A stretch of 62,878 bases of DNA, filler included, from Candidatus Rokuibacteriota bacterium (GCA_031406795.1; 7 parts of 7 records of this genome joined end to end with filler, not necessarily neighbours in it), one strand, 5' to 3'. Shown: positions 8,900 through 48,694, counted from the whole stretch's first letter. Numbers and translations: made by a program. Notes: generated from the letters alone by a model not told the origin.

Positions 8900-8999
8900 N
8901 NNNNNNNNNNNNNNNNNNNNNNNNNNNNNNNNNNNNNNNNNNNTTAATTAATTAANNNNNNNNNNNNNNNNNNNNNNNNNNNNNNNNNNNNNNNNNNNN
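8900..8999. other. Artificial contig linker
   Basis: N-run with TTAATTAATTAA (stops in all six frames). Confidence 0.99.
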
Positions 9000-9272
9000 G
9001 TCGCGCACGCGGCGGCCGGCGAGGAGGACTGGCTGACGGAGATGCCGCCCGACGAGGTGCCCGCCCCCGTCGCGGAGTATGGTACGGACGAGGCGCCGCC
9101 CTGGGCCGTGGCGATGATGGAGGAGCTGCAGCAGCTTCGCGCCGAAAACGCCGCTCTACGCGCGGCGCTGCGGAGCATGACGACACTGCTGGACCGTCAG
9201 ATCGACGTGCTGCGCGAGGGCCGCGACGAGCTCCAGCGCCACGTCGGCGACAATACCGGGGAGAGCGCCTGA
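9000..9272 (+). CDS. Hypothetical protein, 3' part (coiled-coil-like)
   Basis: Open from contig start; stop overlaps purM start (TGATG). Confidence 0.6.
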   Translation, partial: VAHAAAGEEDWLTEMPPDEVPAPVAEYGTDEAPPWAVAMMEELQQLRAENAALRAALRSMTTLLDRQIDVLREGRDELQRHVGDNTGESA

Positions 9273-10348: not shown

Positions 10349-11022
10349 CCGCGCGACTGCTCCCCCTCGGGGTGCTCGCCTCCGGCCGGGGATCGAATCT
10401 CCAGGCGATTCTCGACGAGGTCTCCTCCGGGCGACTGGCCGCCGCGGTGCGGGTGGTCGTCAGCGACGTCGAGGATGCGTTCGCGCTCGAACGCGCCCGC
10501 CGCGCCGGCGTGCCCGCGGTTTTCGTCGACCCGCGGGACCCCGGTGGAAAAGCGGTTTACGAACGCGCGCTCGTCGGCGTCCTGAACGGGCACGGCGTCG
10601 AGCTGGTGGCCCTCGCCGGCTACATGCGCATCTGCGGACCGACCCTCCTCGCGGCCTTCCCGGGGCACATTCTCAACATCCATCCTTCGCTGCTGCCCGC
10701 GTTCCCGGGCTTGCACGTGCAGCGCGCGGCCCTCGAGCACGGGGCGCGCTTTTCGGGGTGCACCGTTCATTTCGTCGACGCAGGCGTGGACACCGGCCCG
10801 ATCATCGCGCAGGCGGTGGTCCCGGTGCTCGACGCCGACACCGAGGAGACGCTCGCCGCGCGCATCCTGCGTCAGGAGCATCGGGTCTACCCGCACGCGA
10901 TCCGCCTGTTCGCCGAGGGGCGCCTGCGCCTCGCCGGCCGACGGGTGCTCGTGAACGCGCCGGCCCCCGGCGCCGGCGACGCCGCGCTCGTTCATCCGCC
11001 GCTGCCGGCAGAAATCCTTTGA
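10345..11022 (+). CDS. purN: Phosphoribosylglycinamide formyltransferase
   Basis: GTGA overlap with purM; LASGRGSNLQA, LAGYMRI, NIHPSLLP, GCTVHFV, DTGPII. Confidence 0.97.
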   Translation: MTARLLPLGVLASGRGSNLQAILDEVSSGRLAAAVRVVVSDVEDAFALERARRAGVPAVFVDPRDPGGKAVYERALVGVLNGHGVELVALAGYMRICGPTLLAAFPGHILNIHPSLLPAFPGLHVQRAALEHGARFSGCTVHFVDAGVDTGPIIAQAVVPVLDADTEETLAARILRQEHRVYPHAIRLFAEGRLRLAGRRVLVNAPAPGAGDAALVHPPLPAEIL

Positions 11023-15752: not shown

Positions 15753-15852
15753 NNNNNNNNNNNNNNNNNNNNNNNNNNNNNNNNNNNNNNNNNNNNTTAA
15801 TTAATTAANNNNNNNNNNNNNNNNNNNNNNNNNNNNNNNNNNNNNNNNNNNN
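15753..15852. other. Artificial contig linker
   Basis: N-run with TTAATTAATTAA. Confidence 0.99.
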
Positions 15853-17440: not shown

Positions 17441-17865
17441 GCTACCTCGTCGACACGAACGTCGTCGCCGAACTCGCGCGGCGCGAACCGAATCCACGGG
17501 TGACTGCCTGGTTCCGCGAAGTTCCGGATGCGACGCTTCACCTCAGCGTGCTGACGCTCGGCGAGTTGAGGAAAGGTGTCGAGTCTCTGTCCGATGGCAG
17601 GAGGAGGGAGCGTCTGAGGGTCTGGCTGGAGAACGACCTCGCGGAGTGGTTCGGTGATCGGCTGCTGCCGGTCTCGGCCGGCGTGGCGGATCGTTGGGGT
17701 CGATTGCTGGCCCAGGCCGGGCGCCCGATCCCGGCGATCGACAGCCTCCTTGCGGCAACCGCGCTGCATCACGGCCTGCGGGTGGTGACAAGGAACGAAA
17801 AGGATTTCGTCTTCCCGGGGCTGGATGTCGTCAATCCGTGGGCCAGCGCATCTCCTCTGCCGTGA
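17437..17865 (+). CDS. vapC: VapC PIN-domain toxin
   Basis: YLVDTNVVAE, GELRKG, DSLLAATA, VTRNEKDF; GTGA overlap with the antitoxin. Confidence 0.93.
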   Translation: MSYLVDTNVVAELARREPNPRVTAWFREVPDATLHLSVLTLGELRKGVESLSDGRRRERLRVWLENDLAEWFGDRLLPVSAGVADRWGRLLAQAGRPIPAIDSLLAATALHHGLRVVTRNEKDFVFPGLDVVNPWASASPLP

Positions 17866-18023
17866 CGAAAGCCAGCGGCGCCCGCGGAACGTGCAGTGGT
17901 GACGGCCATCGGCCACTTCGAGCGCACCGGCACCAGCCCGGTTTGCCATGAGGAGGTCAGCCTGGAGATGCTCCTCGCGCGGGTGACCGAGAGAACACCA
18001 TCGCCGCACGTTTAGCCTTTCGC

Positions 18024-18056
18024 GTGTCCAATTCTGTCACACCTTGCTGTTACCTT
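18024..18056 (+). promoter_or_regulatory. Putative WYL-regulator operator/promoter of the DUF262 gene
   Basis: GTGTCCAATTCTGTCACACCT-N6-TACCTT; 19/21 identical to the reverse complement of 28096-28116. Confidence 0.75.
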
Positions 18057-18144
18057 CCGCAATGCCAAGTGATCACCTGGAGCAGTGCGACCCGGCAGAT
18101 AATGGACCCGGCTGCCGGAATCAGGTCAAACGGAGGGTCAGGAA

Positions 18145-20565
18145 ATGACAAAGGATCACAGAACTTCCCTAACTTCTACGTACTCATTCGATCTTCGGGA
18201 GATCGCGGCATGGCAACTGGAGATGAAAGCACCTGAGTATCGGCAGCATTACCGCCGAGCATCGCTCCCCCTCCTTCAACGGGGTGCTGTATGGAAGGCA
18301 TACCAAGTCGAGGCACTTTGGGATTCTCTTCTCCGCGGCTTTCCGCTAGGTTCCTTCATTCTCTCCCGCTTCGACCGGCAGATGGGGGAGCAATCTGCCA
18401 AGTACTGCGCTGTGGTTGGCAAAGTCGACAAGGATCCCGAATTTCACATTCTTGATGGTCAGCAACGGGCGAATGCAATTGCCGTCGGGTTCATCGACCC
18501 GACGCTGTCCGCAGGCCTCTATTGCGTGGTCTCCGATTCGGAGGGCTGGCCTCCAGACGCTCTTTGGATCGACCTGGCTCCGGATACGAAGTACTTAAAG
18601 GATCGCTCTTTTCTCTTTCGGATGGTCACCAGATCCCATCCTTGGGGATACCGGGCAAGCAATCCGCGTCAAATACTCCAGACAAAGGACATGCGCGATT
18701 GGATCAAGGAGTTGAAAGGACCGCATTCTAGCCCATCGTTGCAAGTCCGCGTTGGAAAGATTCCGTTGAGCGTTGCCTGGCCGTGGGACGCGAACGCACC
18801 CGTGCCGTTTGCCTTTGTCCTGGAGGCCCTTCTTGAAGGAAGCACCAACCCATGGGAACGAATCCGAGAGCGCCTGGAGTCGATTCCTCACGCGAAGAAG
18901 ATGCTCGACGAGCACCTCACATGGAAGGGGGAGGTTCTTCGACTTCTCAGGACTCCAACGAAGGACATGGAAGTCATTCTCGAAGCGACTTCAAGCGCAC
19001 TTGAGAAAACGACTATCCCGGGCATTGTTGTTGAACCTGGGCGTCTCAAGGGGACTGAAGACTTTCAGATCCTGTTTGCCCGCCTCAACTCGGCCGGCAC
19101 GGATCTTGGCTCAGAAGAGCTTCTCTACTCGATGCTCAAAGCTCAGTGGCCGGAGGCCTATTCTGTTGTCGAAAATGCTGCTGAAGGTCTTATGAGTCCA
19201 TCTCGGCTCGTGCTATTCGCATCTCGGTTAGCCATTGATGAAACCATGGAGAAGGACACACCTCCCCGCACCCCCGATTTTGCTCGGTTTCGCGGCCTCA
19301 TTCGGGGAACTGACCAGCAAGACAGTGACTTTCGGACGCGTATGGCTGGTTACGTCCGGGCAGAGGCAGGGTCACTATTCTTGAACGCACTCAAAGATGC
19401 CCAGAAACTCCTGTGCTACGACAACGATCGGGCAGATGCGAGTGACTTTCGTCTTCCGGGGATGTTGGTGGCGACTATAGCTCAGCAATCCCAAGACATT
19501 TTGTTCGCAGCCATTGTGTGGCTGGCAAGACTGCGGCAAACGGCCGTAGTGGATCCTTCGTCGGCGCCAATCGACAACCTTTCAGAAGCCGAGCGCAGGG
19601 CCTTCGTTGCTGGCATCAGTCTCCTGCATTGGTTCGGTATTGACCAGAGTGCGTGCTTGAGGATTCTGTGGCAGGAAATTCGAACCGCAGGCGATGCTGG
19701 GGAACTGCGCAATATTTGGAGCAGAGTGACAAGAAAGTGTTTTTCGGTTGAAGAAGACCAGAGCATCGTCGCCCTCCCTCCTCTTCCGCCTGACCTGCTT
19801 CTCGATCGCACTTGCCGATCGATGTCGAATTTCGAGAACTGGAACCCGTCTGATTGGAGAGATTGGAATTGGGAAGCAAAGGTCAACGCTCTCCCTGTAG
19901 ACGACCTGGAGAAGTGGATGCAGTCAAGCGTTACGCCACTTTCCCCGTCGCTTAAGGATCTGTCTGACAAGGACCGACTGTGGCCTGCAAATGCGTGGCG
20001 TGAATTTGTTGACCGGATCTTCGGCCAGCGGGAATTGCTGCTGTATGGTCAACGCCGATACATAGGAAGATGGTATCCTGAACACGACCCAGTTCAGGGA
20101 GGCCGACTTGAGGACACCAACCGGCCGTGGGATTACGACCACATCATGCCTTCCTACTACATCGCTGGAAGATGGTCCATTCCCCCAGTCATTAAGAAGT
20201 GGCATGGGACCATTGGAAACCTTCGCATCTGGCCGATGGAGGCAAATCGTTCTGATGGGGAGGAAGTCCCAGCGAAGAAACTCTGGTGCGGCGAGGCGGA
20301 CCTTGATCCCAGCTATGGTTTATCCACACCCGAGGACGTGCAGGCTGCGAGTCTTGTTGGTGATTCTTGGTCTCGCGATCTGCTTGGCGATCAACTCGAT
20401 TCGTGGAAGAGTGCTTCGCCAAGCACGGATGGCAATAACCCTGGTTTCCTGAGAGACGAAGCGAATATTGGCTGTCGTCTCGCTCTACTGAAAGCAATCG
20501 CCAGCCGGACCGTGGGCATCTACAAGAGGTGGTACGACGATCTCGAAATTGGGTCGTTGGTATAG
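18145..20565 (+). CDS. DUF262 + C-terminal HNH-like (DUF1524-type) protein, GmrSD-like modification-dependent restriction enzyme
   Basis: LQRGAVW, SLLRGFPLG, LDGQQR, FARLNSAG; C-terminal DHIMP..IGNL..N; lower GC than host. Confidence 0.82.
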   Translation: MTKDHRTSLTSTYSFDLREIAAWQLEMKAPEYRQHYRRASLPLLQRGAVWKAYQVEALWDSLLRGFPLGSFILSRFDRQMGEQSAKYCAVVGKVDKDPEFHILDGQQRANAIAVGFIDPTLSAGLYCVVSDSEGWPPDALWIDLAPDTKYLKDRSFLFRMVTRSHPWGYRASNPRQILQTKDMRDWIKELKGPHSSPSLQVRVGKIPLSVAWPWDANAPVPFAFVLEALLEGSTNPWERIRERLESIPHAKKMLDEHLTWKGEVLRLLRTPTKDMEVILEATSSALEKTTIPGIVVEPGRLKGTEDFQILFARLNSAGTDLGSEELLYSMLKAQWPEAYSVVENAAEGLMSPSRLVLFASRLAIDETMEKDTPPRTPDFARFRGLIRGTDQQDSDFRTRMAGYVRAEAGSLFLNALKDAQKLLCYDNDRADASDFRLPGMLVATIAQQSQDILFAAIVWLARLRQTAVVDPSSAPIDNLSEAERRAFVAGISLLHWFGIDQSACLRILWQEIRTAGDAGELRNIWSRVTRKCFSVEEDQSIVALPPLPPDLLLDRTCRSMSNFENWNPSDWRDWNWEAKVNALPVDDLEKWMQSSVTPLSPSLKDLSDKDRLWPANAWREFVDRIFGQRELLLYGQRRYIGRWYPEHDPVQGGRLEDTNRPWDYDHIMPSYYIAGRWSIPPVIKKWHGTIGNLRIWPMEANRSDGEEVPAKKLWCGEADLDPSYGLSTPEDVQAASLVGDSWSRDLLGDQLDSWKSASPSTDGNNPGFLRDEANIGCRLALLKAIASRTVGIYKRWYDDLEIGSLV

Positions 20566-20583
20566 CATGTCCAGTGTTGACCA

Positions 20584-20623
20584 GGCGACTCATCTTGACG
20601 GCAAGCCACGGAAGACTTACTAT
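20584..20623 (+). promoter_or_regulatory. Right copy of the 20-bp direct repeat, containing the -35 of the abrB-PIN promoter
   Basis: Repeat at 20584-20603; TTGACG(20595)-N17-TACTAT(20618). Confidence 0.75.
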
Positions 20624-20661
20624 TTCCACAAGTAAAGCAACACAGGAAAGTAGGTGATACG

Positions 20662-20910
20662 ATGGCAGTCAAGGTGATGAAGGTCTCCAGTAAGGGGCAG
20701 GTGACCCTTCCCCGGGAGGTCCGCAAGATCCTCGGGTCGGATGTGGTCACCTACGACCTCCGGGACGGACGGGTGTTGCTCCTCCCGGTGAAGGACGTGG
20801 GAGGCAGCCTCAAGGAGTACGCCGGGAGGCTGCCGATGCCGTTCAAGCGCGCTCGGGAGAAAGCCTGGGAGGACGTCGTCCGTGAAAAGGCCGGCCGGGC
20901 GGATACCTGA
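20662..20910 (+). CDS. AbrB/MazE/SpoVT family antitoxin
   Basis: KVSSKGQVTLPREVRKILG. Confidence 0.9.
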   Translation: MAVKVMKVSSKGQVTLPREVRKILGSDVVTYDLRDGRVLLLPVKDVGGSLKEYAGRLPMPFKRAREKAWEDVVREKAGRADT

Positions 20911-21283
20911 CACCAACGCGATCGTCCGCTATCTCCTGCGGGATCACCCCACCCTTTCTCCGAAGGCCGAAGAGTTCTTTGCCCGCGTTCGCACGGGAGA
21001 GCAGAAGGTCCTCATCCTGGAGAGCGTCATCGCCGAAGCTGTCTACGTCCTGACGAAGGCCTACGGCGTTCCCCGGGAAAAGGCCGTGGGCGGGCTGCTT
21101 GGGCTCCTCAACTACCGCGGGGTGGCCAACCATGACCGGGCCTCGCTCATCGATGCTTTGGCGCTCTTCGGTGCCGGCAAGCTCGACATCGTCGATTGCA
21201 TCGTCATCGCCCGGGCTCGGCGTGAGCACGGCGAGCCCTTCTCGTTCGATAAGGACCTCTTGAAGGAATCTGGTGGTGCCTGA
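20882..21283 (+). CDS. PIN-domain (VapC-like) toxin
   Basis: DTNAIVRYL, VIAEAVYVL, DIVDC, FSFDKDL. Confidence 0.88.
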   Translation: MKRPAGRIPDTNAIVRYLLRDHPTLSPKAEEFFARVRTGEQKVLILESVIAEAVYVLTKAYGVPREKAVGGLLGLLNYRGVANHDRASLIDALALFGAGKLDIVDCIVIARARREHGEPFSFDKDLLKESGGA

Positions 21284-24200
21284 CGTCGGGCAGCCTGAAC
21301 GCGCCACGCAGCAGCGCGTCGTCGCGCTCTTCCGCGACGAGCTCGGATACCGCTACCTCGGGGACTGGACCGACCGCGAGGGGAACAGCAACGTCGAGGA
21401 GGGGCTTCTCAGCGCGAACCTGAGCCGGCGGGGCTACTCGCCGGCGCAGATCGGCAGGGCGATCCACGCGCTGCGCACCGAAGCCGACAACCACGCTCGC
21501 AGCCTGTACGCGAACAACAAGGCGGTCTACGTACTGCTGCGCTACGGCGTCCCGGTGAGGCTGGCGGCGGGGGAGGCGACGGAGACCGTCCACCTCGTCG
21601 ACTGGCGGGATCCTGCGGCGAACGACTTCGCCATCGCCGAGGAGGTCACGCTGAGGGGGAACCTCGAGCGGCGCCCCGACCTCGTGCTCTACGTCAACGG
21701 TATCGCCGTCGGCGTGCTGGAGTTGAAGAACAGCCGCGTCAGCATCGGCGACGGCATCCGGCAGAGCCTGTCGAACCAGAAGCCGGAGTTCAATGCGTGG
21801 TTCTTCGGCACCGTGCAGTTCGTCTTCGCGGGGAACGACTCGGAGGGGCTGCGCTACGGCACCGTCGGGACGCCGGAGACCTACTTCCTGCGGTGGAAGG
21901 AGGACGAGGCGGACGACCGCCGCTTCACGCTGGACAAGTACCTGTTGAAGATCTGCGCAAAGGAGCGGCTGATCGAGCTGATGCGCGACTTCGTGCTCTA
22001 CGACGGCGGCGTGAAGAAGCTCCCCCGCGCGCACCAGTACTTCGGTATCAAGGCAGCACAGCGGCACGTGCGCGAGCTCCGCGGCGGCATCATCTGGCAC
22101 ACCCAAGGGAGCGGCAAGAGCATCGTCATGGTGCTGCTGGCCCGGTGGATTCTGGAGAACAACCCGAACGCCCGGGTGGCGATCGTCACCGACCGCGACG
22201 AGCTGGACAAGCAGATCGAGCGGGTCTTCGCCGAGGCGGGGGAGGCGATCCTGCGCTGCACCAGCGGCCGCGACCTGATGAGCCGGCTCGAGCAGGCCCG
22301 GCCGCGCCTGCTCTGCTCGCTGGTCCACAAGTTCGGGCGGCGTGACGTCGACGACTTCGACGCCTTCATCCGGGAGCTGGAGGCGCAGCCGGGCCGGGCG
22401 GTCGGCGAGATCTTCGTCTTCGTGGACGAGTGCCACCGGACCCAGAGCGGCAGGCTGCACCGGGCAATGAAGGCGCTCCTGCCGGAGGCGGTCTTCATCG
22501 GGTTCACCGGGACGCCGCTGCTGAAGCGGGACCGGCAGATGAGTCTCGAAGTCTTCGGCGGCTACATCCACACCTACAAGTTCAGCGAGGCGGTGCAGGA
22601 CGCGGTGGTGCTCGACCTGGTCTACGAGGCGCGGGACATCGACCAGCGCCTCGGCTCCCCGCAGAGGATCGACGCCTGGTTCGACGCCAAGACCCGCGGG
22701 CTGAACGACTGGCAGCGCGAGGAGTTGAAGCGGCAGTGGGGGACGATGCAGCGCGTGCTCAGCTCGCGCTCGCGGATGGAGCGGGTGGTCAGCGACGTGC
22801 TCTTCGACTTCAGCGTCAAGCCGCGCCTCTCCAGCGAGCACGGCAACGCCATCCTGGTCGCCTCGAGCATCCACGAGGCGTGCAAGTACTTCACGCTCTT
22901 CCAGAAGACGCCGCTCAAGGGGAAGTGCGCTGTCGTGACCTCCTACAACCCGCACGCGCAGGACGTGACCAGGGAGGAGATCGGGGCCAACACCGAGACC
23001 GAGAAGCAGTTCGTCTACAACACCTACACCGAGCTGCTCGCAAGCGTCGAGGCGCTGCCGGGGATGACCCGGACCGAGGGCTACGAGGAGCGCGCCAAGA
23101 GGCTCTTCGTCAAAGAGCCCGCGAGCATGAAGCTGCTCGTGGTGGTCGACAAGCTGCTGACCGGGTTCGACGCGCCGCCGTGCACCTACCTCTACATCGA
23201 CAAGTCGATGCAGGACCACGGCCTCTTCCAGGCGATCTGCCGCGTCAACCGGCTGGACGGCGACGACAAGGAGTTCGGCTACATCGTCGACTACAAGGAC
23301 CTCTTCCGGAAGGTCGAGAACGCCATCGCGGTCTACGCCTCGGAGCTGGATCACAGTGCGGGGGGCGCCGACCCGGAGGTGCTGCTGCAGGACCGCCTCG
23401 CGAAGGGGAAGGAGCGCCTCGACCAGGCGCTGGAGGCGATCGCGCTGCTCTGCGAGCCGGTGGCGCCGCCGAAGGGCGAGCTGGAGCACATCCGCTACTT
23501 CTGCGGCAACACCGAGATCCCGGAGGACCTCAAGGCGCGAGAGCCGCAGCGGGCCGCTCTCTACAAGGCGACGGTGGCGTTGCTCCGCGCCTACGCCGCC
23601 ATCGCCGACGAGCTGGAGGCCGCGGGGTACGGCAGCGCCGACGTCGCGCGGATCAAGCGGCAGGTCCAGCACTACCTGGACGTCCGCGAGATCGTGCGCA
23701 AGGCCAGCGGGGAAAGCCTCGACCTCAAGGCCTACGAGGCGGACATGCGCCACCTGATCGACACCTACATCGAGGCCGACGACCCGCGGAAGATCTCGCC
23801 GTTCGACGACATCGGGCTGCTCGATCTGATCGTGAAGACCGGCATCGCCAACGCCATCGCCGCGCAGCTCGGGAAGATGAAGGGGAACCGGGACGCCGTC
23901 GCCGAGACGATCGAGAACAACGTCCGCAGGCGGATCATCAAGGAGCATCTGAACGATCCGGCCTTCTTCGCGAGGATGTCGGCGCTGCTCGACGAGATCA
24001 TCCGTTTCCGCAAGGAGCGGGCCGACGCGTACGAGGAGTACCTGAAGCGCATCGCCGAGCTGGTGAAGCAGGTCGCCGCCGGCCACGGCGAGGAGATCCC
24101 CGAGCAGCTCAAGAGGAGCCCGGCCCTCCGGGCGCTCTACAACAACCTCAAGGCGGGCGGACGGCGACCCGACAGGGCGGATCGGGCGGCCGAGGGGTTC

Positions 24201-24401
24201 GGCGACGAGGCGTCGCCGCACGATCCCGAACTGCGCCTGGCGATGGCCATCGACGAGACCGTCAAGCGGGTCCGGCCCGACGGCTGGCGCGGCGTGCAGG
24301 CTCGCGAGCTGGTCGTCAAGCGGGCACTGTATGACCTGCTGCACGACGAATCCGAGGTCGAACGGATCTTCCTGATCGTCAAGGCGCAGAGCGAGTACTG
24401 A
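21276..24401 (+). CDS. hsdR: Type I restriction endonuclease subunit R
   Basis: RPDLVLYVNG..ELKN nuclease motif, HTQGSGKS Walker A, DECHR, FTGTP, LLTGFDAP, QAICRVNR. GTG start at 21273 or 21276. Confidence 0.96.
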   Translation: MPDVGQPERATQQRVVALFRDELGYRYLGDWTDREGNSNVEEGLLSANLSRRGYSPAQIGRAIHALRTEADNHARSLYANNKAVYVLLRYGVPVRLAAGEATETVHLVDWRDPAANDFAIAEEVTLRGNLERRPDLVLYVNGIAVGVLELKNSRVSIGDGIRQSLSNQKPEFNAWFFGTVQFVFAGNDSEGLRYGTVGTPETYFLRWKEDEADDRRFTLDKYLLKICAKERLIELMRDFVLYDGGVKKLPRAHQYFGIKAAQRHVRELRGGIIWHTQGSGKSIVMVLLARWILENNPNARVAIVTDRDELDKQIERVFAEAGEAILRCTSGRDLMSRLEQARPRLLCSLVHKFGRRDVDDFDAFIRELEAQPGRAVGEIFVFVDECHRTQSGRLHRAMKALLPEAVFIGFTGTPLLKRDRQMSLEVFGGYIHTYKFSEAVQDAVVLDLVYEARDIDQRLGSPQRIDAWFDAKTRGLNDWQREELKRQWGTMQRVLSSRSRMERVVSDVLFDFSVKPRLSSEHGNAILVASSIHEACKYFTLFQKTPLKGKCAVVTSYNPHAQDVTREEIGANTETEKQFVYNTYTELLASVEALPGMTRTEGYEERAKRLFVKEPASMKLLVVVDKLLTGFDAPPCTYLYIDKSMQDHGLFQAICRVNRLDGDDKEFGYIVDYKDLFRKVENAIAVYASELDHSAGGADPEVLLQDRLAKGKERLDQALEAIALLCEPVAPPKGELEHIRYFCGNTEIPEDLKAREPQRAALYKATVALLRAYAAIADELEAAGYGSADVARIKRQVQHYLDVREIVRKASGESLDLKAYEADMRHLIDTYIEADDPRKISPFDDIGLLDLIVKTGIANAIAAQLGKMKGNRDAVAETIENNVRRRIIKEHLNDPAFFARMSALLDEIIRFRKERADAYEEYLKRIAELVKQVAAGHGEEIPEQLKRSPALRALYNNLKAGGRRPDRADRAAEGFGDEASPHDPELRLAMAIDETVKRVRPDGWRGVQARELVVKRALYDLLHDESEVERIFLIVKAQSEY

Positions 24402-25117
24402 TGGCCCGGCAGCTGAGGCTGGGCGACGTCACGGCCGACGTCGTCTTGAAGGACATCAGGAACATCCATCTCAGCGTCTATCCCCCGACAGGTCGGGTGC
24501 GCATCTCCGCCCCCCTGCACATGAGCCTCGACACCATCCGCGTCTTCGCGATCGCCAAGCTCGGCTGGATCAGGAAGCAGCAGGCCAGGCTTCGGGCTCA
24601 GGTGCGCGAGACGCCGCACGAGTACGTGGACCGGGAGAGCCACCACCTCTGGGGGAGACGCTACCTGTTGAAGGTGGTCGAGGCCGACCGGACGCCATCG
24701 ATAGAGGTAAAGGGCGGATCTCTGCTCCTGCGGGCGCGAGCGGGGTCCGACCGGGCGAAGCGGCGGGATGTGATGGATGCCTGGTATCGCGATCAACTCA
24801 GGGAGGCTGTGCCGCCTTTGATCGCGGCGTGGGCGCCGGCCATCGGCGTGACCGTGGAGCGCTTCTTCGTGCAGCGGATGCGGACCCGATGGGGCAGCTG
24901 CTCACCCGGCCGGCGCACCATCCGCCTGAACACCGACCTGGCGCGCAAGCCGCGGGAGTGCCTGGAGTACATCGTCGTTCACGAACTCGCCCACCTGTCG
25001 GAGCCGACGCACAGTGCCCGCTTCGTCGCGCTGATGGACCGGCTCATCCCGGGCTGGCGCCACCGGCGGGACCAGCTGAACCAGCTCCCCGTCCGCCACG
25101 AGGAGTGGTCCTATTAA
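24401..25117 (+). CDS. M48/SprT-like (DUF45/YgjP) HExxH metal-dependent hydrolase
   Basis: MRTRWGSC, YIVVHELAH; usual position after hsdR; TGATG overlap. Confidence 0.92.
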   Translation: MARQLRLGDVTADVVLKDIRNIHLSVYPPTGRVRISAPLHMSLDTIRVFAIAKLGWIRKQQARLRAQVRETPHEYVDRESHHLWGRRYLLKVVEADRTPSIEVKGGSLLLRARAGSDRAKRRDVMDAWYRDQLREAVPPLIAAWAPAIGVTVERFFVQRMRTRWGSCSPGRRTIRLNTDLARKPRECLEYIVVHELAHLSEPTHSARFVALMDRLIPGWRHRRDQLNQLPVRHEEWSY

Positions 25118-25207
25118 TCCCGGCACGGTCCTGGGGTTGCGATCCCCGCGCAAACAGTTCACAGCTTGAGACAAGAGTTCGTCGACGTGGTCTGAGCAAG
25201 ATCAACC

Positions 25208-25675
25208 TTACCGCAACCCGTACAGATACAGCAGCGCCGCCCAGCCTGACGGGAGGTGAGCGGGCGAGGTCTCGAGCTCGTTCCCGTACCTGACCGCCAT
25301 CTCCAGGAAGAAGCGGGCGTGGAAGAACGCCTCGAGGATCGGCCGGGTTTGCCGGGTCCACTCCTGGTTGTGAGCCGACTCGAATTTTTTGCCGCTCGCC
25401 CCGTCCTGAAGGATCTCCTCGAACATCGGGTTGAAGGTGGTGATCCCTGCCGGCGCCAGGCTCTTCAGGACCTCGACGATGCTCCTGGTCAACTCCTGAC
25501 GCTCGTAGACCTTCCACGACTGGTGGTAGAACCGATACACGGTATCCTCGTACTCGTAGTCCGAACTCATCTCCTCGATGAGGTACTCCAACTCCGGCAA
25601 TCGCGCCTGGATGTTCGCGAGCAGCTCGTTGGACTTCGCCTCCAGTTCGCTCAGGTCCATGTATTTCCGTGTCAA
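25208..25675 (-). CDS. Hypothetical protein
   Basis: AGGAGG RBS + TTG (or ATG at 25660); protein-like motifs YRFYHQSWKVY, EAFFHARFFLEM, LPSGWAALLYLY. Confidence 0.8.
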   Translation of the reverse strand: MTRKYMDLSELEAKSNELLANIQARLPELEYLIEEMSSDYEYEDTVYRFYHQSWKVYERQELTRSIVEVLKSLAPAGITTFNPMFEEILQDGASGKKFESAHNQEWTRQTRPILEAFFHARFFLEMAVRYGNELETSPAHLPSGWAALLYLYGLR

Positions 25676-25720
25676 TTGAGCCTCCTGTCAACGCCTGGCG
25701 GGCAGGTCGCTCCGTCATGT

Positions 25721-26479
25721 TCATGCACTGACTTGGCGATTCTCTTGCATGGCCTCTTTGATTGTTTTTATCAGTTTCTTTCGCCATTCATTGGATTGCC
25801 GTCCGGGATGGGCGCATTCAATAATGATCTGCGAACCATGTCTTCTTGCAGAGAATTCTTCTCGATTGTAAAGAACCACATTCTCAGAATCGAACAACTT
25901 GTCGAGCACCTCATACCGCTTAGTGAACAGAACGGTGATTTTGGCATTGACTGTTAGGATTTCCTTTGCCAGATATTCATGCTTCAAGCAATTGGCGTGC
26001 AGATTCCTTTGGTAGGAAGAGTTACCCGACAAGCATTTGCATGCATTGGAGAATGCAACTTTCTCCAGCTTGTCATTCCAACTATATGCTTTGTCTGTGA
26101 AGAGGGAATCAATCACGTCCTTTATTATCGCCCAGTAGGTCCCCATCGATTCGATCGTGTTGAATGAGAACTGCAAGGGGCTGAAGCAGATACTGTCAAT
26201 GTCGTTTGGCCAGCCGGCATCGCCGTGCCATCCAAAATGATCTCTCCCAACGAAAAGAATTTCCGGGTCTTTTCCTATCCAGTAAATTCCTTGTGGACCA
26301 TCACGATCCGGTTTTTCTGAATATCCTGCTCTTGCTTCTGTGCACTCTTTAATACAGGCAGGCAAATGTTTATTGTAGTAATCCCATATCTCAATGTACT
26401 TATTTCTTGATCCCCGAAAGTGCTCGAGAAACTTTTCATTATTTCTGTTCAGGTGTTTCTTGAATTCTGTGTCCCACAA
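25721..26479 (-). CDS. Low-GC protein, probable uracil-DNA-glycosylase-like fold
   Basis: AAGGAG RBS + TTG at 26479; ordered ILFVGRD, VAFSNACKC, LAKEI..VLFT, CAHP match the UDG-superfamily motif layout. Confidence 0.6.
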   Translation of the reverse strand: MWDTEFKKHLNRNNEKFLEHFRGSRNKYIEIWDYYNKHLPACIKECTEARAGYSEKPDRDGPQGIYWIGKDPEILFVGRDHFGWHGDAGWPNDIDSICFSPLQFSFNTIESMGTYWAIIKDVIDSLFTDKAYSWNDKLEKVAFSNACKCLSGNSSYQRNLHANCLKHEYLAKEILTVNAKITVLFTKRYEVLDKLFDSENVVLYNREEFSARRHGSQIIIECAHPGRQSNEWRKKLIKTIKEAMQENRQVSA

Positions 26480-26558
26480 TTTACTTTCTCCTTTTGCGGC
26501 CCGACCAGAGTGCGTCTGACTGTGACGCACCAAGAAATGAAGCACCTCTTCCAGTGAG

Positions 26559-28043
26559 TCATTGGACCATCTCCCGCAGCTTCTCCACGATCCGCACCAT
26601 CGCCAGCGTGTCGAGACCGCAGTAATCGAGCAGGGCATTGCGGATGCGGGCCACCTCCTGCGGGTCCTGGGTGGCGCACATCTCGTAGTAGGCGGTCATC
26701 GCCATTCCACCGTTGGCGACATCCATCTCATCGTACGAGAGTTCGGGGACGAGGAGCGGCAACACGTCCTTGATCGAGGAGGACCCCTTCTGTTGCCAGA
26801 AGTAGACCGAGCGGGCCTGGAAGAGTTTGATCGGGTCGTGGAATGACTCCAGCAGGCGCCCGATCCGCGTAGCGTACGGCGGGAGGTGCTTGGCAAGTTC
26901 GCGGAGCCTGGTCTTCTCGAAAGACTCATACCAGGCGATGACACTCGCGCCCTCGGGGATCTGCCCGAGGAGCGTCGCGGTAAGCTCTTCCCTCGGGTCA
27001 ATACCGGGCTGTGCCAGGAACTCGTGGTGCACGAGAGCCGCGCCTTCGCTCGGCTGGACGTGCAATGAGTACTGGAAGGGGATCATTTTATAGGGGCGCG
27101 ATTCATCGAACAGCGGGATTGCCGGGTTCACCGTCTCGAAATCGAGATAGCAGATGGGATAGCGGAGTGCGTCGAGAAACCGGCGAACTTCCTTCGTCTT
27201 GAGGGTGTTGCACTGCTTGATGGTCGATTCGACCTGGTGTCGTTGCTTTTCGCTCAACAAGTTTGCCGGGATGTCGCTCTGGCGCACCATTCCCTGACGG
27301 TACAAATCGAATCGCTTCGAGACAGTGAGCCTGCCAACCGTGAACACCGAGTCCTCCGGGATGTGCTGCCAGCAGTGCTTGTGGAAGTCGCAGTCGTACG
27401 GATCGCTGCAATGCGATCCGATGTCGATCGTCGGCATCTTCTCCTGGAGCATTGCCCGCATTTCGGCGATCTCGGACCCAATGTCCGTCTGCATCTTCCT
27501 GACGTCGGCCGTGATGTCCACAATCTTGAAGAGTTTCTGGACGTCGATGTCGCCGCGGCGTGTGTAGCGATTGTCGACGTGGACTATGGCAACTTTCGCG
27601 ATCTTCAGCCCGGCGCCGGCGAGGACATACAACTGGATCGCCGCATCGAAATAATAGTGCTCCTTGACCTCGGCAGCCCCCTTCACCTCGAGGATCTCCC
27701 AGCCCGCGTCGCCGCGGTGCAGGATGTCGACCTTGACGAAGACGCCGTCATGCTCGAACGTTGCCTCGTAGATGGTCTCCTTGCCCTGATCGAGGAGATC
27801 TTGCGTCATCGCCAGCTGCTCGGGGTGTGTCATGCCCTCGTAGGGAACTTCGACGCCGCCCGGGAAGAGCTGCTGCGCCAGCTTCCCGATCTCGTGGCCG
27901 CTGCGGAACCGCGCCTGCAGACTCGCGTCGGCTTCCTCGCTCAGATCCGGCTGGTGCTTCCTCAGCCAGAGCCTCTTGTGGCACTGATGACCGGCCATGA
28001 ACAACGATTTACTGAGGTATCCCGACACCTTACGCTCTGCCAT
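26559..28043 (-). CDS. DUF2779-domain protein (Cas4-like PD-(D/E)xK N-domain + RNase H/exonuclease-like C-domain)
   Basis: LSKS..QCHKRLWL, YEATF, VDIL..ILEVK, CSDPYDCDFHKHC, YLDFET, PFQYSLH, SIKDVLP, YCGLDTLAMV; GGAGGAG RBS. Confidence 0.88.
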   Translation of the reverse strand: MAERKVSGYLSKSLFMAGHQCHKRLWLRKHQPDLSEEADASLQARFRSGHEIGKLAQQLFPGGVEVPYEGMTHPEQLAMTQDLLDQGKETIYEATFEHDGVFVKVDILHRGDAGWEILEVKGAAEVKEHYYFDAAIQLYVLAGAGLKIAKVAIVHVDNRYTRRGDIDVQKLFKIVDITADVRKMQTDIGSEIAEMRAMLQEKMPTIDIGSHCSDPYDCDFHKHCWQHIPEDSVFTVGRLTVSKRFDLYRQGMVRQSDIPANLLSEKQRHQVESTIKQCNTLKTKEVRRFLDALRYPICYLDFETVNPAIPLFDESRPYKMIPFQYSLHVQPSEGAALVHHEFLAQPGIDPREELTATLLGQIPEGASVIAWYESFEKTRLRELAKHLPPYATRIGRLLESFHDPIKLFQARSVYFWQQKGSSSIKDVLPLLVPELSYDEMDVANGGMAMTAYYEMCATQDPQEVARIRNALLDYCGLDTLAMVRIVEKLREMVQ

Positions 28044-28083
28044 GATCTTTTCCACTCCTCCCCGAGTGTATGATACTGTTGCC

Positions 28084-28116
28084 AAAATAAGCCTCAGGTG
28101 TGACAGAATCGGACGC
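28084..28116 (-). promoter_or_regulatory. Putative WYL-regulator operator/promoter of the DUF2779 operon
   Basis: Minus strand GCGTCCGATTCTGTCACACCT-N6-TATTTT in the divergent spacer; twin of 18024-18056. Confidence 0.75.
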
Positions 28117-28127
28117 AGCAGTAGTGA

Positions 28128-29165
28128 ATGTTTTCCTGGGGGATGACTATGTATTGGGCGCGGCACCTGGTCAAGCTGCTCAAAGCGGTCGAACTCATCG
28201 GCCGGCCGCAGGGCGCCACGATCGACGAACTGGTGGAGCGGCTCGAGATAAACAAGCGTACCGCCTACCGGATGATTGAAACGATGGACGAGATGAGCTT
28301 CCCGTTCTACGAGGACACTTCGTCACTGGACGGAAAAAAACACTATCAGTTCGAGCCGCACTTCTTGAAGAAACTCCCCAACCTGAGCGTGCCGGAGCTG
28401 CGGCTCTCGCTCTCCGAGATCATCGCGCTGTCGTTCATCCGGGGGAGCAGCGGCCCGTTCAAGGGAACCGACGTCGAGGAGGACATCGAGAGCGCGTTCA
28501 GGAAGATGGACGCCTTCATACCCGAGAAGTTCGTGACGCAGCTGGACAAGGTGCGGACCCTCTTCACCGCCCCAGGCCGTTTCACGAAGGACTACCGCGA
28601 CAAGGACGAGGTCATCGGCGCCCTCACCGACGCGATGTTCAAGCAACTGACCTGCCTCGTGGAGTACCACTCCTTCCACGACGACAAGGTGAAGCACTTC
28701 AAGATCGACCCGCTGCGGTTCGTCGAACGCGACGGCGGGCTGTACGTCTTCGTCAATACGACGAGCTACGGAGACATCCGGCTCCTTGCCGTGGAGCGGA
28801 TCCTGAAACTGACGCCAAGCGACAAACAATTCACGGTGCCCGAGGATTTCGACCCTGACACGTTGCTCGAGACCGCCTTCAACCTGACCATCGGTGATCC
28901 CGTCACGGTGAAGGTACGGTTCTCCGCGGACCAGGCCCGCTACGTGAAGGAGCGCCGCTGGGCGGCCACGCAGACCCTGACCGACCAGCCCGACGGCTCG
29001 GTGATCCTCGAACTCGAAACCTCCGGCCGCTGGGATGTGAAGCGCTGGGTGCTCGCGTTCGGCGCGGATGCGGAACTCCTGGAGCCCGAGGATCTGCGGC
29101 AGGAGATCGCCGCGGATCTCGGCAGCATGATTAAGGCATATTCTCGAAAAACCAAGCATCATTAG
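28128..29165 (+). CDS. wHTH-WYL-WCX transcriptional regulator (YafY/BrxR/DriD-like)
   Basis: N-terminal HTH (TIDELVERLEINKRTAYR), IDPLRF..GGLYV..LAVERI, WCX (WVLAFGADAELLEPEDLR). Start may be 28143 or 28149. Confidence 0.93.
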   Translation: MFSWGMTMYWARHLVKLLKAVELIGRPQGATIDELVERLEINKRTAYRMIETMDEMSFPFYEDTSSLDGKKHYQFEPHFLKKLPNLSVPELRLSLSEIIALSFIRGSSGPFKGTDVEEDIESAFRKMDAFIPEKFVTQLDKVRTLFTAPGRFTKDYRDKDEVIGALTDAMFKQLTCLVEYHSFHDDKVKHFKIDPLRFVERDGGLYVFVNTTSYGDIRLLAVERILKLTPSDKQFTVPEDFDPDTLLETAFNLTIGDPVTVKVRFSADQARYVKERRWAATQTLTDQPDGSVILELETSGRWDVKRWVLAFGADAELLEPEDLRQEIAADLGSMIKAYSRKTKHH

Positions 29166-29191
29166 ACAAATCGTTTATGGAGCACATGCCT

Positions 29192-29285
29192 GGCGGAGGG
29201 GTGGCGCGGAGGGGAGGACTCCATCGGCGGAACGGAGTGAGCACGATGGAGATCCGCAGCGTCGGGACCCCGCAGCCTGCACGGG
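29192..29285 (+). repeat. Dispersed structured element, short copy
   Basis: Shares a 5' block, a TCCGCAGCG core and a 21-nt 3' block with 53873-54107; CTCCATCG/CGATGGAG stem. Confidence 0.75.
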
Positions 29286-29292
29286 GAGGAAG

Positions 29293-32200
29293 ATGATGAG
29301 AAGAGTCACGCGTGCCTTGGCGTTCACTCTGGGTGCAGCACTGATAACTGCCGCCGTTGCAGCGACCGCACCGCCTCCCGCCCACAGCGCGACCCGCCCC
29401 GTCGCCGCCTCCGGCACCCTCATCGTCCCGGACCGCTTCCTCCGCAGCTGGGACCCGCTGACCATCTTCTTTGCCAGGGACACCGGCCCCGCCAAGGCCG
29501 GCCCCGAGGATGACCCCGAACGCCTCGTCACCCTCACTCCCGACCAGCCCGGCGCCTGGACTTGGCTCGACGCGCGCACGCTGCAGTTCCGGCCCGCCGA
29601 CCCCTGGCCGCCGCTGACGCGCTTCGCGGTGCGGGCGGGCGGCGCCAGCGCCTCGATCGACACCCTGGTCAACCCGCCGAGCGAAACTATTCCGCCCGCC
29701 GGGGAAACCGGCCTGCTGCCGCTCGCCGAAATCACGCTGGTCTTCCCCGAAGCGCTCGACGCCGAGGCCCTGGCCCGCATGCTCTCCGTCCAGATCCGCC
29801 CGTTGCCCGGCGTCGCAAGCGACGGGGCCGCAACGCTCTCCCGGGAGGACTACGCAGTGCGCGCACTCGAGCGCGCCGCGGCCGCCGACCCGGCCCGCTA
29901 CGTCGTGCGTTTTCGCGAACCGATCCCCTGGGGCCGCCAGGTGGTGCTGCGCCTGCGCCTCTCGCTCGCCGATGCCGGCGAGGGTGTCGCCGAACTGACC
30001 TTCGCGACCGCCGAGCCCTTCCGTGTCGTCTCGGTCAGCCCGAGCTACAGCCGCCGCCTGCCGGTGACGGCCGCCGGCAGCCGTTACGACCGCGACCAGG
30101 CGATCGCCGGCCCGCCCGAAGGCCGCCAGATCGAGATCGAGTTCTCCACGCCCCCGCGCGACCTCGGCCCGGTCGAGGCGCGCAATCTCGTGCGCCTCAC
30201 GCCACCCGTCGACGGCCTCGAATTCTCGGTCGAGGGCAGCGCGCTGCTCGTGCGCGGCGACTTCGCCCGCGAGACGCTCTACCGCCTCGACCTGGTGCCG
30301 GCGCACCTGGCCGACAAGCATGGCCGCGCACTCGCCATGTCCGGCGAGAGCACGGTCTGGTTTCACTTCCCCCAGCCCGCCCATTTCCTGCGCTGGGGCG
30401 CCAGCCAGGGGATCCTCGAGCGCTTCGGCCCGCAGATGGCCCCGCTCAAGGGGCGGGGTGAGGAGCGCGTCGATCTGCGCATCCACCGCGTGGACCCGCT
30501 CGACCGCTCCTTCTGGCCGTTCCCGCCGCTCGCCGTCGCCGTCGACGAGTCGCGGCGCCCACCCGGCCCCGGCGAAGAGCCGGGGGCCTTCACCGACCCG
30601 GGCCGGCCGATCACGCCGGAGGCGCTGACCGCGCGGATCGCCGCCCTCGGCTCCCCGGCCGTATCGGCGCTCGTCGATCTGCCGCTGCGCCGCGAGAAGG
30701 GGAGCGCGGCCTTCGGTCTCGACCTGGCGCCGCACCTGGCCTTCATCGCAGGTAAGGGCGAGCCGGGGCACTACCTGGTCGGCATCCGCGAACTCGGGCG
30801 CTCGACGATCAGGAACTGGATGCGCGTTCAGGTGACCGACCTCGCCGTCGCCACGCTGGAGGAGCCCGCGGCGGTCCGCTTCGCGGTGACTTCGCTCGCC
30901 ACCGGGGCGACGATCGCCGGGGCCCGCGTGCGCGTCGAAGGCTTGTATGCCTTCGAAGGCAAGCCGCTGGAATGGCGAACGCTCGCCGAGGGGACCACCG
31001 GCGCCGACGGCGCGTTTACCTGGGCTGCGCCGGGCTCCTCCTCGCGCGAGCGACGCCAGGTGCGGCGGATCGTCGTCGAGAACGGCAAGGATGTGCTCGC
31101 CCTCGACGCCGCGACGCCGCCCGACGGCTATGGCGACGGTCTCTGGGAACCGGCGCGCGGCACCTGGCTGCAGTGGGCGTTCGAGGCGCTCGACCAGCGA
31201 AAACCCGCGGCGGAAGCGCTCTGCCACATTTTCACCGAGCGCCCGCTCTACCGGCCGGAGGAGGAAGTCTTCATCGCGGGTTGGGTGCGCAAGCGCGAGA
31301 AGGGCACCCTCGCGATAGCCGGCGGCAAAGGCACGCTGGTCGTGCGCGGCCCCGGCGATCTGGAGTGGCGCTACCCGCTCGTCCTTAGCGCGACCGGCGG
31401 CTTCTTCCAGCGGTTCTCGCAGCAGAAACTGCCGACGGGCGAATACGCGGCGCGCTTCGAGGACGCCAAAGGCCGCTCCCTCGCCGAGGTCGCCTTCAGG
31501 ATGGAGGCCTACCGGCTGCCGTTGTTCGAGGTGCGGCTGCACGGCCCGGACACGACGGCGCTCGATCGCGACGTCACGATCAACCTCACGGCTTCGTTCT
31601 ACGCCGGCGGCAAGGTGGCCGGGCGGCCGCTGCAGTGGCGCGTGACCCAGTTCCCGTACACCTGGACCCCCGAGCGGCGCCCCGGGTTCTTCTACTCCTC
31701 GGACGGACGCTTTTCGAAGACCGGCCGTTTCGAATCGACCCCGGCGCTGGTGCGCCAGGATGCGACCGACGCCGACGGCGCCGCGGCGCTCTCGCTCAAT
31801 CCGGGCCTCGAGCCAACCGCCCAGCCGCGCCAGTACATCGTCGAGGCCACCGTCACCGGCGCCGACGACCAGACGGTGACCGCGACCAAGCGGGTGCTCG
31901 CCCTCCCCGCCTTCGTGCTCGGCCTCAAGGTGCCGCGCTACGTCGAGCGCGCCGAGCGGCTCGAACCCGAGGTGATCGCGGTGGGGCCGGACGGCAAGCC
32001 GCTGGCGGGTCTGCCGATCACGGTGCGCCTGCTGCGGCGCTCCTGGCACTCGGTGCTGCGCGCCGGCGATTTCTCGGAGGGTGCCGCCAAGTACCAGACC
32101 GACGTCGTCGACGAAAAGATCGTCGAGATCACCGTCAAGAGCGGCGATGCGCCGGTGAAAGTGCCACTGGCGCTGGCCGGCGCCGGCGTCTACGTAGTCG

Positions 32201-36865: not shown

Positions 36866-36965
36866 NNNNNNNNNNNNNNNNNNNNNNNNNNNNNNNNNNN
36901 NNNNNNNNNTTAATTAATTAANNNNNNNNNNNNNNNNNNNNNNNNNNNNNNNNNNNNNNNNNNNN
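36866..36965. other. Artificial contig linker
   Basis: N-run with TTAATTAATTAA. Confidence 0.99.
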
Positions 36966-48594: not shown

Positions 48595-48694
48595 NNNNNN
48601 NNNNNNNNNNNNNNNNNNNNNNNNNNNNNNNNNNNNNNTTAATTAATTAANNNNNNNNNNNNNNNNNNNNNNNNNNNNNNNNNNNNNNNNNNNN
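48595..48694. other. Artificial contig linker
   Basis: N-run with TTAATTAATTAA. Confidence 0.99.

Follow-up and report, generated by a model that had tools for sequence, protein, structure and literature searches.

The two near-identical 21-nt sequences of the window (the 62,878-nt stretch of Candidatus Rokuibacteriota bacterium, GCA_031406795.1, analyzed here, filler included) are, with a probability of roughly 65%, two of ten island-confined promoter boxes to which a DriD-like WYL protein likely binds as a homodimer and from which it would activate the genes behind them. Sequence comparison, within the genome and with orthologous metagenomic loci, points to this reading.

Promoter boxes in the window and in the genome

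An earlier note on this DNA had described the two 21-mers as a convergent pair, identical at 19 of 21 positions, each having a TAnnnT hexamer 10 nt after TGTCAC and no good -35. Positions, match, hexamers and the neighboring gene calls were all confirmed (Table 1), and a sigma-70 consensus scan of 17800-29300 gave no -35/-10 promoter at either site. By itself, the 19/21 identity was not significant, being within chance for the window, where several such matches are expected; 21-mer pairs with at most two mismatches formed 48 clusters in the window vs 1, 7, 9, 9, and 11 in five first-order Markov randomizations. A pattern test on the window (expected 0.02) was circular, since the pattern was derived from those same two sites. 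The weight of evidence comes from the box family and not from the pair.

The earlier note had proposed scanning the whole bin and homologous WYL/DUF2779 loci with the motif, and these scans yielded ten boxes on one island as well as boxes beside WYL orthologues. With a matrix built from the sites, the ten boxes in the whole 4.1-Mb genome scored 25-48, compared with 16.8 for the next best match in 8.2 Mb (both strands), and one non-training match exceeded 14 under a uniform background. All ten were located on contigs C147 and C194, and the whole-genome matrix scan gave no box outside the island. The arrangement TGTCAC-N10-TAnnnT occurred nine times in the genome vs 0-2 times at each of the spacings N6-N9 and N11-N15.

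The box consensus was TG(T/A)Cx-N5-TGTCA(C/T), equivalent to GWC-N7-GTC, followed by N10 and a -10-like hexamer, without a -35. The core G(T/A)C-N7-GTC was present in all ten genome sites and in five orthologous loci. Its most frequent form was a direct repeat, TGTC-N6-TGTC, with a 10-bp period, and the perfect inverted form GTGAC-N7-GTCAC was seen in one of the ten genome sites (C194 +12035) and at orthologous loci L048 and L049. The N10 spacing from box to hexamer was kept in 10/10 genome sites and 5/5 relatives. The final T of the hexamer was found in 7/10 and 1/5, respectively, which counts against the preferred reading. No usable -35 was found 16-18 nt from the hexamers of the box sites. 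Canonical TTGACA-N17-TAnnnT promoters are present in this genome (on C209). Boxes lay on both strands, with several arranged in tandem or back to back, each toward a gene: an ORF of at least 192 aa starts within 28-130 nt after eight of the ten, and the other two precede truncated ORFs.

Table 1. Boxes, hexamers and genes in the island part of the window.
Feature	Position	Strand	Remarks
Accessory island part	17843..29177	.	No DNA match in three same-genus genomes; G+C 0.55-0.56 at ends vs 0.63-0.72 outside
Box 1 GTGTCCAATTCTGTCACACCT	18024-18044	+	TGTCC-N5-TGTCAC, core 18025-18040; pseudo-palindrome GTC-N7-GTC; matrix score 44.1
-10-like hexamer of box 1, TACCTT	18051-18056	+	Exactly 10 nt after TGTCAC (18035-18040); without -35
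GmrSD_N (DUF262)-domain protein, 806 aa	18145-20565	+	PADLOC HEC-05-like; start codon 88 nt past hexamer
Type I restriction R subunit	21273-24401	+	No box upstream
YgjP-like metallopeptidase	24401-25117	+	In 21273..25117 unit; no box upstream
Two ORFs of unknown family	25721-26638, 25044-25787	-	Same strand, downstream of DUF2779; no family match
DUF2779/Cas4-like (RecB-like) nuclease, 494 aa	26559-28043	-	Start codon 40 nt past hexamer
-10-like hexamer of box 2, TATTTT	28089-28084	-	Exactly 10 nt after TGTCAC (28105-28100)
Box 2 GCGTCCGATTCTGTCACACCT	28116-28096	-	CGTCC-N5-TGTCAC; matrix score 38.0; toward DUF2779
wHTH-WYL-WCX regulator, 338 aa	28149-29165	+	Recognition helix KRTAYRM; closest solved relative DriD

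The two box-bearing contigs fill one insertion point, because in same-genus genome G002 the sequence of C194:2-1122 is immediately contiguous with the alpha-2-macroglobulin gene of C147. The two window sites had been taken for both ends of a defense island; this was refuted, as the island continues on the second contig. Same-genus genomes G001-G003 contained no box and no full-length orthologue of the WYL gene. Within the window, the ORF pair at 25044..26638 likely forms one operon with DUF2779. A sigma-70-like site at 20595-20623 lies before the R subunit/YgjP-like unit, and that unit is at most a candidate member of the regulon. Several island ORFs had no family assignment, and the gene calls between the two window sites included no transposase.

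The WYL regulator and its orthologues

The conserved start of the WYL gene is the one in Table 1 and not 28128, as had been given before, and it lies 32 nt from the end of box 2. Pfam domains WYL (E 4.8e-10) and WCX (E 2.3e-22) were detected in the protein. Its best PDB match by sequence was DriD (E about 1e-8, residues 13-326), and BrxR and CapW gave no match at E<=1 in the same search. In fold comparison, based on a modest structure model (mean pLDDT 65.6, pTM 0.37, linker region <50), DriD was again best (E 2e-16), PafBC was next (E 1e-13 to 1e-14), and BrxR/CapW reached about 1e-7. Helices were predicted at 81-139 with pLDDT <50, where a three-helix-bundle linker contacting RNA polymerase would be expected in a DriD/DdaA-type activator, and the DriD sequence alignment spans this region. 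The recognition helix aligned to RRTAERM of DriD, with R41 invariant and R37 present in 9 of 10 aligned relatives. Among the residues with which DriD contacts single-stranded DNA (ssDNA), the Tyr and one Arg are kept in the alignment and the Trp and Lys are not. Alignment and modeled fold place the protein closer to DriD/PafBC than to BrxR/CapW. Its gene is the only recognizable regulator adjoining any of the ten boxes; the genome has two further WYL genes, and the window gene calls placed no second WYL gene beside it.

Comparison of loci shows that the box co-travels with orthologues of the WYL gene across unrelated metagenomic contigs. In the 83 kb of orthologous loci searched, where about 0.02 matches above 14 were expected, box scores were 31.5 (L046), 32.4 (L047), 21.6 (L048), 16.6 (L049), and 14.3 (L050-52). 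Every match stands before the gene transcribed divergently to the WYL orthologue, with TA at N10 in all. The box occupies the same place beside the WYL orthologue in L045 (severed there by the contig end), L047, L048, and L049; the L046 box precedes the DUF2779 orthologue, with an extra ORF between box and WYL gene. In orthologues down to 49% identity, the box precedes the WYL gene by 30-37 nt and is directed toward the divergent gene. This conservation links boxes and WYL gene beyond mere adjacency.

The WYL orthologue was the sole gene common to all box-bearing metagenomic contigs, and the cargo varied. The divergent partner is DUF2779 (L046, L047) or a ClpP-like gene with an AAA/WHD gene (L048, L049, L053), and in L057 a GmrSD_N gene follows the WYL gene. 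All of these gene kinds, DUF2779, ClpP-like/AAA, and GmrSD_N, are box-preceded in the present genome. The proposal that one WYL protein controls two units, including a gene to which it is not adjacent, fits ten boxes on two contigs with one adjoining regulator, and had underestimated the scale. Those parts of the earlier interpretation that were accessible to computation held. Against the preferred reading, L008, an orthologue of 48% identity whose recognition helix is nearly the same, lacks the box and has another palindrome.

Proposed activation and the competing readings

The DriD site of Caulobacter crescentus is ATACGAC(X)7GTCGTAT, and DriD promoters have no -35; their box covers that position and keeps a fixed distance to the -10, as described in the available portion of PMC13004042. 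By count, the DriD promoter oligo given there, TGTCGC-N10-CAATCT, has the spacing of the present boxes; its 'optimised -35' falls in the box spacer, 17 nt from CAATCT. The didA site and box 2 with its flanks are identical at 15 of 20 positions by count. DriD is a homodimeric wHTH-3HB-WYL-WCX activator (PDB 8tp8, 9pfq, 9pfv), and here, too, a box lies near the regulator's own start codon, autoregulation having been suggested for DriD. The likeness to the DriD site had been put as GAC-N7-GTC: the pseudo-palindrome with an N7 core stands, but both sites in the window have GTC-N7-GTC, which on the complementary strand is GAC-N7-GAC. Further differences are a protein identity of only about 18-19%, outer half-site bases TGTG/TGTC instead of ATAC, an upstream triplet that is mostly GTC instead of GAC, and partial retention of the ssDNA-contact residues. 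Moreover, DriD serves a core-genome damage response (didA, bapE, recJ, dnaG), whereas all ten boxes here are on an accessory island.

DdaA of Moraxellaceae is, in the part of PMC12392091 available, a WYL activator acting on DNA-damage and anti-phage genes, and its motif CGWCA-N5-TGWCG (GWC-N7-GWC) is found in restriction-modification and CRISPR-Cas promoters, so that one WYL protein co-regulates several defense units. Compared by motif and by that description, DdaA differs in being a core regulator that replaced SOS and also drives recA, uvrA, and others, whereas no box of the present kind was found outside the island. The PafBC geometry invoked in the earlier note agrees with the sections consulted of PMC8635444, which give tGTCgg(N10)tA(N3)T, a -26 element but not a -35, and a GTC read by two arginines spaced R-x3-R in an actinobacterial sigma adaptation; the promoter-proximal geometry of the boxes (-26 element at -23 to -28) is identical, and PafBC was the second-best fold match. 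PafBC, as a heterodimer or a fusion, places one wHTH on DNA and is described as not binding promoters without RNA polymerase (PMC13004042, in part). A two-subunit or fusion arrangement of this type was rejected for the island, which has a single 338-aa gene and a box of two half-sites.

In the preferred activator reading, the GWC triplets, at about -38 and -27 in the usual place of a -35, would be recognized by the two wHTH domains through Arg37 and Arg41 of helix 3. Once bound, the dimer may recruit the housekeeping RNA polymerase to weak promoters that have only a -10, in the manner of DriD and PafBC. The signal is probably ssDNA or another nucleic-acid cue of infection or damage. Box 2 falls within the DNA upstream of the WYL gene, and its occupancy would therefore also damp WYL transcription.

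The same protein acting on the same boxes as a repressor, over the -35 region until a ligand releases it, is an unlikely alternative with precedent. The WYL regulators so far known from defense islands, BrxR and CapW, are repressors in the passages available (PMC9122601, PMC13004042), BrxR has two boxes in a single defense island (PMC9122601), and the present box overlaps the core promoter region. BrxR/CapW also share the wHTH-WYL-WCX layout, defense islands with varied cargo, and more than one box per island. However, their operators are described as longer inverted repeats downstream of or over the promoter that act by steric block (PMC9122601, in part), and an operator of this type, blocking a complete -35/-10 promoter, was found at neither window site. 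There is no usable -35 for a repressor to cover, though TTGACA-N17-TAnnnT exists in the genome; the invariant N10 is unneeded by a repressor; and the protein is closer to DriD/PafBC by sequence and fold. Protein and promoter shape favor activation over BrxR/CapW-type repression of the cargo genes.

It is improbable that some other factor (an OmpR/PhoB-type regulator, an unrecognized island protein or a WYL paralogue) reads the TGTC direct repeats and that the WYL neighbor is incidental. TGTC-N6-TGTC, 10 nt from a -10 and without a -35, does recall Pho-box promoters, in which direct TGTCA-type repeats stand 10 nt before the -10 and substitute for the -35, and candidates exist in the family-less island ORFs and the two further WYL genes. 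The Pho-box period is 11 bp vs 10 bp in the present boxes, however, and the host pho locus (C230:12000-26747; phoB-like, phoR, pstSCAB, phoU) contains no such repeat. The WYL paralogue on C188 has its own palindrome, CTGACA-N6-TGTCAG, unique in the genome, paralogue loci L004 and L005 gave a best box-matrix score of 0.7, and only the WYL orthologue is common to all box-bearing contigs.

We consider it very improbable that the boxes are one promoter cassette spread across the island through duplication and recombination, alike by descent and without a common regulator. The box at C194 -6564, with its leader and first codons, duplicates the ClpP-like promoter region, the leader ACCAAACCAGGGAGG recurs in three sites, and two boxes stand before truncated ORFs; but the ten sites differ beyond box and hexamer, with low information content in N10 and flanks, and box and spacing are kept beside orthologues of 49-50% identity on AT-richer, unrelated contigs with unalignable flanks. 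It is hardly credible that the 21-mers bound a 10-kb mobile element as its terminal inverted repeats, or that they match by chance: they are mutually inverted, bracket low-G+C DNA and match no better than chance allows, but the N10 enrichment and ten-site matrix family contradict this genome-wide, eight more copies in both orientations each face a gene, no transposase lies between, and the island boundary set by the same-genus genomes is outside both sites and takes in the WYL gene.

A proposed island-borne activator and its cargo

A broader and tentative proposal, for which the odds are rather against, is a portable, self-regulated immune-and-arrest regulon in which ssDNA from infection or damage would be sensed and one WYL dimer would switch on at least eight operons, the ClpP-like/AAA/WYL trio of distant metagenomes being the ancestral core. 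The program would include three nuclease-type genes (GmrSD_N, DUF2779/Cas4-like, SbcCD-like), a pair of IetA-like AAA and ClpP-like protease, and a PDC-S11-like gene. It would also take in shortened copies of FtsZ and DnaA, which bear Tat-like leaders and could cause cell arrest.

In the usual view, most WYL regulators in defense islands are local repressors of a single neighboring system, and WYL activators controlling defense genes are already known in DdaA. Here, the DNA by itself yields a candidate wiring diagram of one activator-branch island regulator and ten precisely phased boxes, with a cargo of known defense-type genes and unstudied ones (DUF2779, the ClpP-like/AAA pair, and exported-looking FtsZ/DnaA copies). 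Should the boxes function in this way, they would pick out which unknown genes take part in one stress or infection response, and would show that activation of the DriD type may be carried along with an island. GWC-N7-GTC-N12-TAnnnT offers a practical key for finding further WYL activator regulons.

The box family and its specificity

Both 21-mers of the earlier note were found where it had placed them, with an identity of 19/21. In each, TGTCAC (18035-18040, +; 28105-28100, -) was followed after exactly 10 nt by a -10-like hexamer (TACCTT and TATTTT, respectively), and a consensus scan gave no -35/-10 promoter at either 21-mer, in agreement with the claimed absence of a good -35. The gene descriptions around them also held. 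The WYL start was placed at 28149 because the N-terminus MYWARHLVKLL is conserved. Both boxes and the WYL gene lie on one contig, C147, of a 4.1-Mb genome in 278 contigs, and no hsdM or hsdS adjoining the genes for the type I restriction R subunit and the YgjP-like metallopeptidase (21273-25117) was found on this contig. The N runs with TTAATTAATTAA (8900-9000, 15753-15852, 36866-36965, 48595-48694, 51355-51454 and 60119-60219) are contig linkers; hence, the window is a concatenated bin of MAG contigs. Long stretches rich in G/C homopolymers beside two contig ends (37054-37153 and 51453-51551) look like assembly artefacts.

A single 19/21 match is within chance, and its significance comes from the box family. 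Clusters of 21-mer pairs matching this well numbered 48 in the window versus 1-11 in Markov randomisations. TGTCAC-N10-TAnnnT occurred nine times in the genome, compared with 0-2 times for each of the remaining spacings between N6 and N15. Listing the relaxed pattern TG(T/A)Cx-N5-TGTCAC-N10-(T/A)Annn(T/G) across the genome yielded nine sites, and a matrix built from these recovered a tenth; the ten scored 25-48, and the genome's next best site 16.8. With a uniform-background matrix, only one non-training match exceeded 14 (8.2 Mb, both strands). Among 60 other genomes, two (G049 and G055) contained one match each to the pattern, and there was one further control match. The G049 match scored 11.9, and the G055 match (16.7) lay within a non-coding repeat that had no WYL gene; all three are treated as chance. 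A sigma-54 reading of box 1 (TGTCAC...TTGC) was rejected, as its spacing was two off and it was absent from the other boxes.

A probable single accessory island

Two of the ten boxes are in the window and eight lie outside it on contig C194 of the same genome. An ORF of at least 192 aa started 28-130 nt after the box in eight of the ten cases, with the start codon exactly 28 nt past the hexamer at four boxes; truncated ORFs stood behind two. Twin-arginine-like leaders of RRxF type (DRRKFL, DRRMFL, LRRTFI) were seen in the FtsZ paralogue, the DnaA-ATPase paralogue and the 200-aa ORF, all of them box-driven.

Boxes and genes of the proposed island (window coordinates for C147)
Feature	Location	Strand	Remarks
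Box 1	18024-18044	+	
GmrSD_N-domain protein	18145-20565	+	
Type I restriction R subunit and YgjP-like metallopeptidase	21273-25117	+	
Two ORFs without family			Downstream of DUF2779
DUF2779/Cas4-like	26559-28043	-	
Box 2	28096-28116	-	
WYL+WCX regulator	28149-29165	+	
ClpP-like/AAA pair	C194:1172-4005		Also at L048, L049, L053, L055, L009
Two boxes	C194:4055, 4230	-	Before ClpP-like gene and AAA/winged-helix ATPase with weak IetA likeness
Box	C194:5027	+	Before PDC-S11-like gene
Box	C194:6564	-	ClpP-like promoter duplicate, first codons only
Box	C194:7828	-	Before 200-aa ORF and Tpt1/KptA gene
Box	C194:7887	+	Before FtsZ paralogue
Box	C194:9432	+	Before DnaA-ATPase paralogue
Box	C194:12035	+	Before SbcD-like and SbcC-like genes
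ORFs with twin-arginine-like leaders	C194:7937-9010, 9482-10381, 7175-7777		Box-driven

In three same-genus genomes, no DNA match to window 17843-29177 was detected, the boxes numbered zero, and a full-length WYL orthologue was likewise absent; one of them, G002, retains a 37-residue remnant of the WYL protein elsewhere. On a single G002 contig, the first gene of C194 (C194:2-1122) lies beside the alpha-2-macroglobulin gene, which comes after the WYL gene on C147, at a distance of ~170-300 bp. Because G002 joins their flanking genes, C194 and C147 occupy the same insertion point, and the accessory DNA of at least 28 kb would form a single island, interrupted by a gap in the assembly. An element of ~100 bp at the right edge of the island (29178-29291, between the WYL and alpha-2-macroglobulin genes) had dozens of matches in each of the three same-genus genomes at 74-93% identity, and looks like a REP/MITE-like dispersed repeat.

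The regulator and the boxes of its orthologues

With the WYL protein, the DriD/PafBC-like branch gains another member. Its best solved relative by sequence was DriD (E ~1e-8, residues 13-326); matches to PafC/PafBC were confined to the WYL-WCX part, and among solved structures no BrxR or CapW chain was matched by sequence at E<=1. A structure model based on 12 relatives was of modest quality (pLDDT 65.6), with wHTH, WYL and WCX confident and the linker not; Foldseek with this model ranked DriD first (E 2e-16), followed by PafBC (1e-13 to 1e-14) and BrxR/CapW (~1e-7). Helix 3 reads KRTAYRM, compared with RRTAERM in DriD.

The motif scan proposed in the earlier note, covering the whole bin and orthologous loci, returned ten genome boxes, and it found more at WYL orthologues. 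Fifteen metagenomic and two genomic loci of relatives were compared. In L045, L047, L048 and L049 (84%, 74%, 50% and 49% identity to the WYL protein, respectively), a box was found, as in the window, 30-37 nt ahead of the WYL start and on the opposite strand. L046 (81%) has its box in front of a DUF2779 orthologue (82% identical), with an extra ORF between box and WYL gene, and in L050-52 (44%) TGCCG-N5-TGTCAC-N10-TATGGT precedes a divergent AAA gene. TA stood at N10 in 5/5 scored loci, and the chance expectation for matches above 14 in these 83 kb was ~0.02. The divergent cargo was DUF2779 in L046 and L047 and ClpP-like plus AAA/WHD in L048, L049 and L053, while L057 carries a GmrSD_N gene 3' of the WYL gene; all three kinds of cargo have boxes in the present genome. 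Since the cargo varies between box-bearing loci, the WYL gene is their common denominator. A -10 of the WYL gene's own in box register was discarded: the window has AATGTT, but L045 and L047 do not keep the register.

Some loci count against this association. L008 (48% identity, recognition helix almost identical) has another palindrome and no box, and L053, L055, L009 and L054 (42-43%) each have a single TGCCG-N5-GCGACA in the corresponding position, a sequence that may or may not be a diverged box. The box was absent from both WYL relatives found among genome contigs, the only two there, and no relatives were found among viral contigs. Nor was any RNA run found that contains the locus.

Further arrangements were seen at WYL loci. 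In L008 (3700-4000, a Desulfobacteraceae MAG), a ~150-bp block with the palindrome TGCCAAACT-N3-AGTTTGGCA is tandemly duplicated upstream of the WYL gene. A second WYL gene of the present genome has a perfect palindrome of its own (C188:3353-3400; L004 ~2146-2200), CTGACA-N6-TGTCAG, occurring once in the genome and followed after 10 nt by TAGGAT and an ATG 6 nt on, possibly giving a leaderless mRNA. On several unrelated metagenomic contigs, genes for a ClpP-like protease and for an AAA ATPase whose N-domain is a winged helix, weakly resembling IetA/IteA, are divergent from WYL orthologues. By analogy with ietAS, this trio may be an undescribed defence module with a different protease; among papers listed for WYL with ClpP, none dealt with it.

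Proposed regulon and alternatives

The proposed regulation resembles published promoters. The DriD site is reported as ATACGAC(X)7GTCGTAT, and by our own count the one promoter oligo given reads TGTCGC-N10-CAATCT, the same spacing as in the island boxes, and the authors' optimised -35 falls within the spacer of the box, at 17 nt from CAATCT (PMC13004042). The PafBC motif is tGTCgg(N10)tA(N3)T, its -26 element spans -23 to -28, and R46 and R50 contact both G:C pairs of the GTC triplet (PMC8635444). A similar G:C readout would explain the GTC/GAC interchange in the upstream half-site, and with this interchange the direct repeat TGTC-N6-TGTC and the pseudo-palindrome GWC-N7-GTC are one box. By analogy, a WYL dimer would likely sit on GWC-N7-GTC at about -39 to -23 and recruit or adapt the housekeeping polymerase at -10-only promoters, so that the island operons would be switched on together, presumably in response to a ligand. 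Transcription is predicted to start ~7 nt past each hexamer. The end of box 2 is 32 nt away from the WYL start codon, upstream of it, so this box would also affect WYL transcription; for DriD, autoregulation through a box close to its own gene has likewise been proposed (PMC9186387).

Binding of the boxes by the WYL protein as a repressor is a less likely mode; BrxR-family regulators neighbour varied defence systems and can have two boxes in an island (PMC9122601). It is improbable that a different factor reads the boxes, as such a site is absent from the host pho locus, by which a host Pho box was also rejected, and the palindrome at the C188 WYL paralogue is a separate one that occurs nowhere else in the genome. 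Still less credible is a promoter cassette spread in the island without common control. Two box-driven relics point to recombination between promoter cassettes: at C194:6411-6564, the ClpP-like promoter has been copied together with its leader and first codons and fused to an apparent PIN-toxin C-terminal fragment (by eye), and at C194:4060-4230 the box is followed by an ORF of only 18 codons that contains an RR motif. That the two 21-mers are transposon ends (terminal inverted repeats), or match merely by chance, can be dismissed, given the N10 enrichment and the ten-site genome family.

The first reading of the earlier note, a shared WYL regulon, is supported and enlarged. The WYL activator DdaA (motif CGWCA-N5-TGWCG) directly increases expression of restriction-modification, CRISPR-Cas and repair genes (PMC12392091), and the principle of WYL-activated defence is therefore in print. 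For DUF2779, titles and abstracts contained nothing on regulation or defence function. The proposal of a WYL-box regulon is directly testable. What is new is a DriD/PafBC-like member that is island-encoded, with every detectable box on its own island, and the ClpP-like/AAA pair or DUF2779 as recurrent partner of the WYL regulator.
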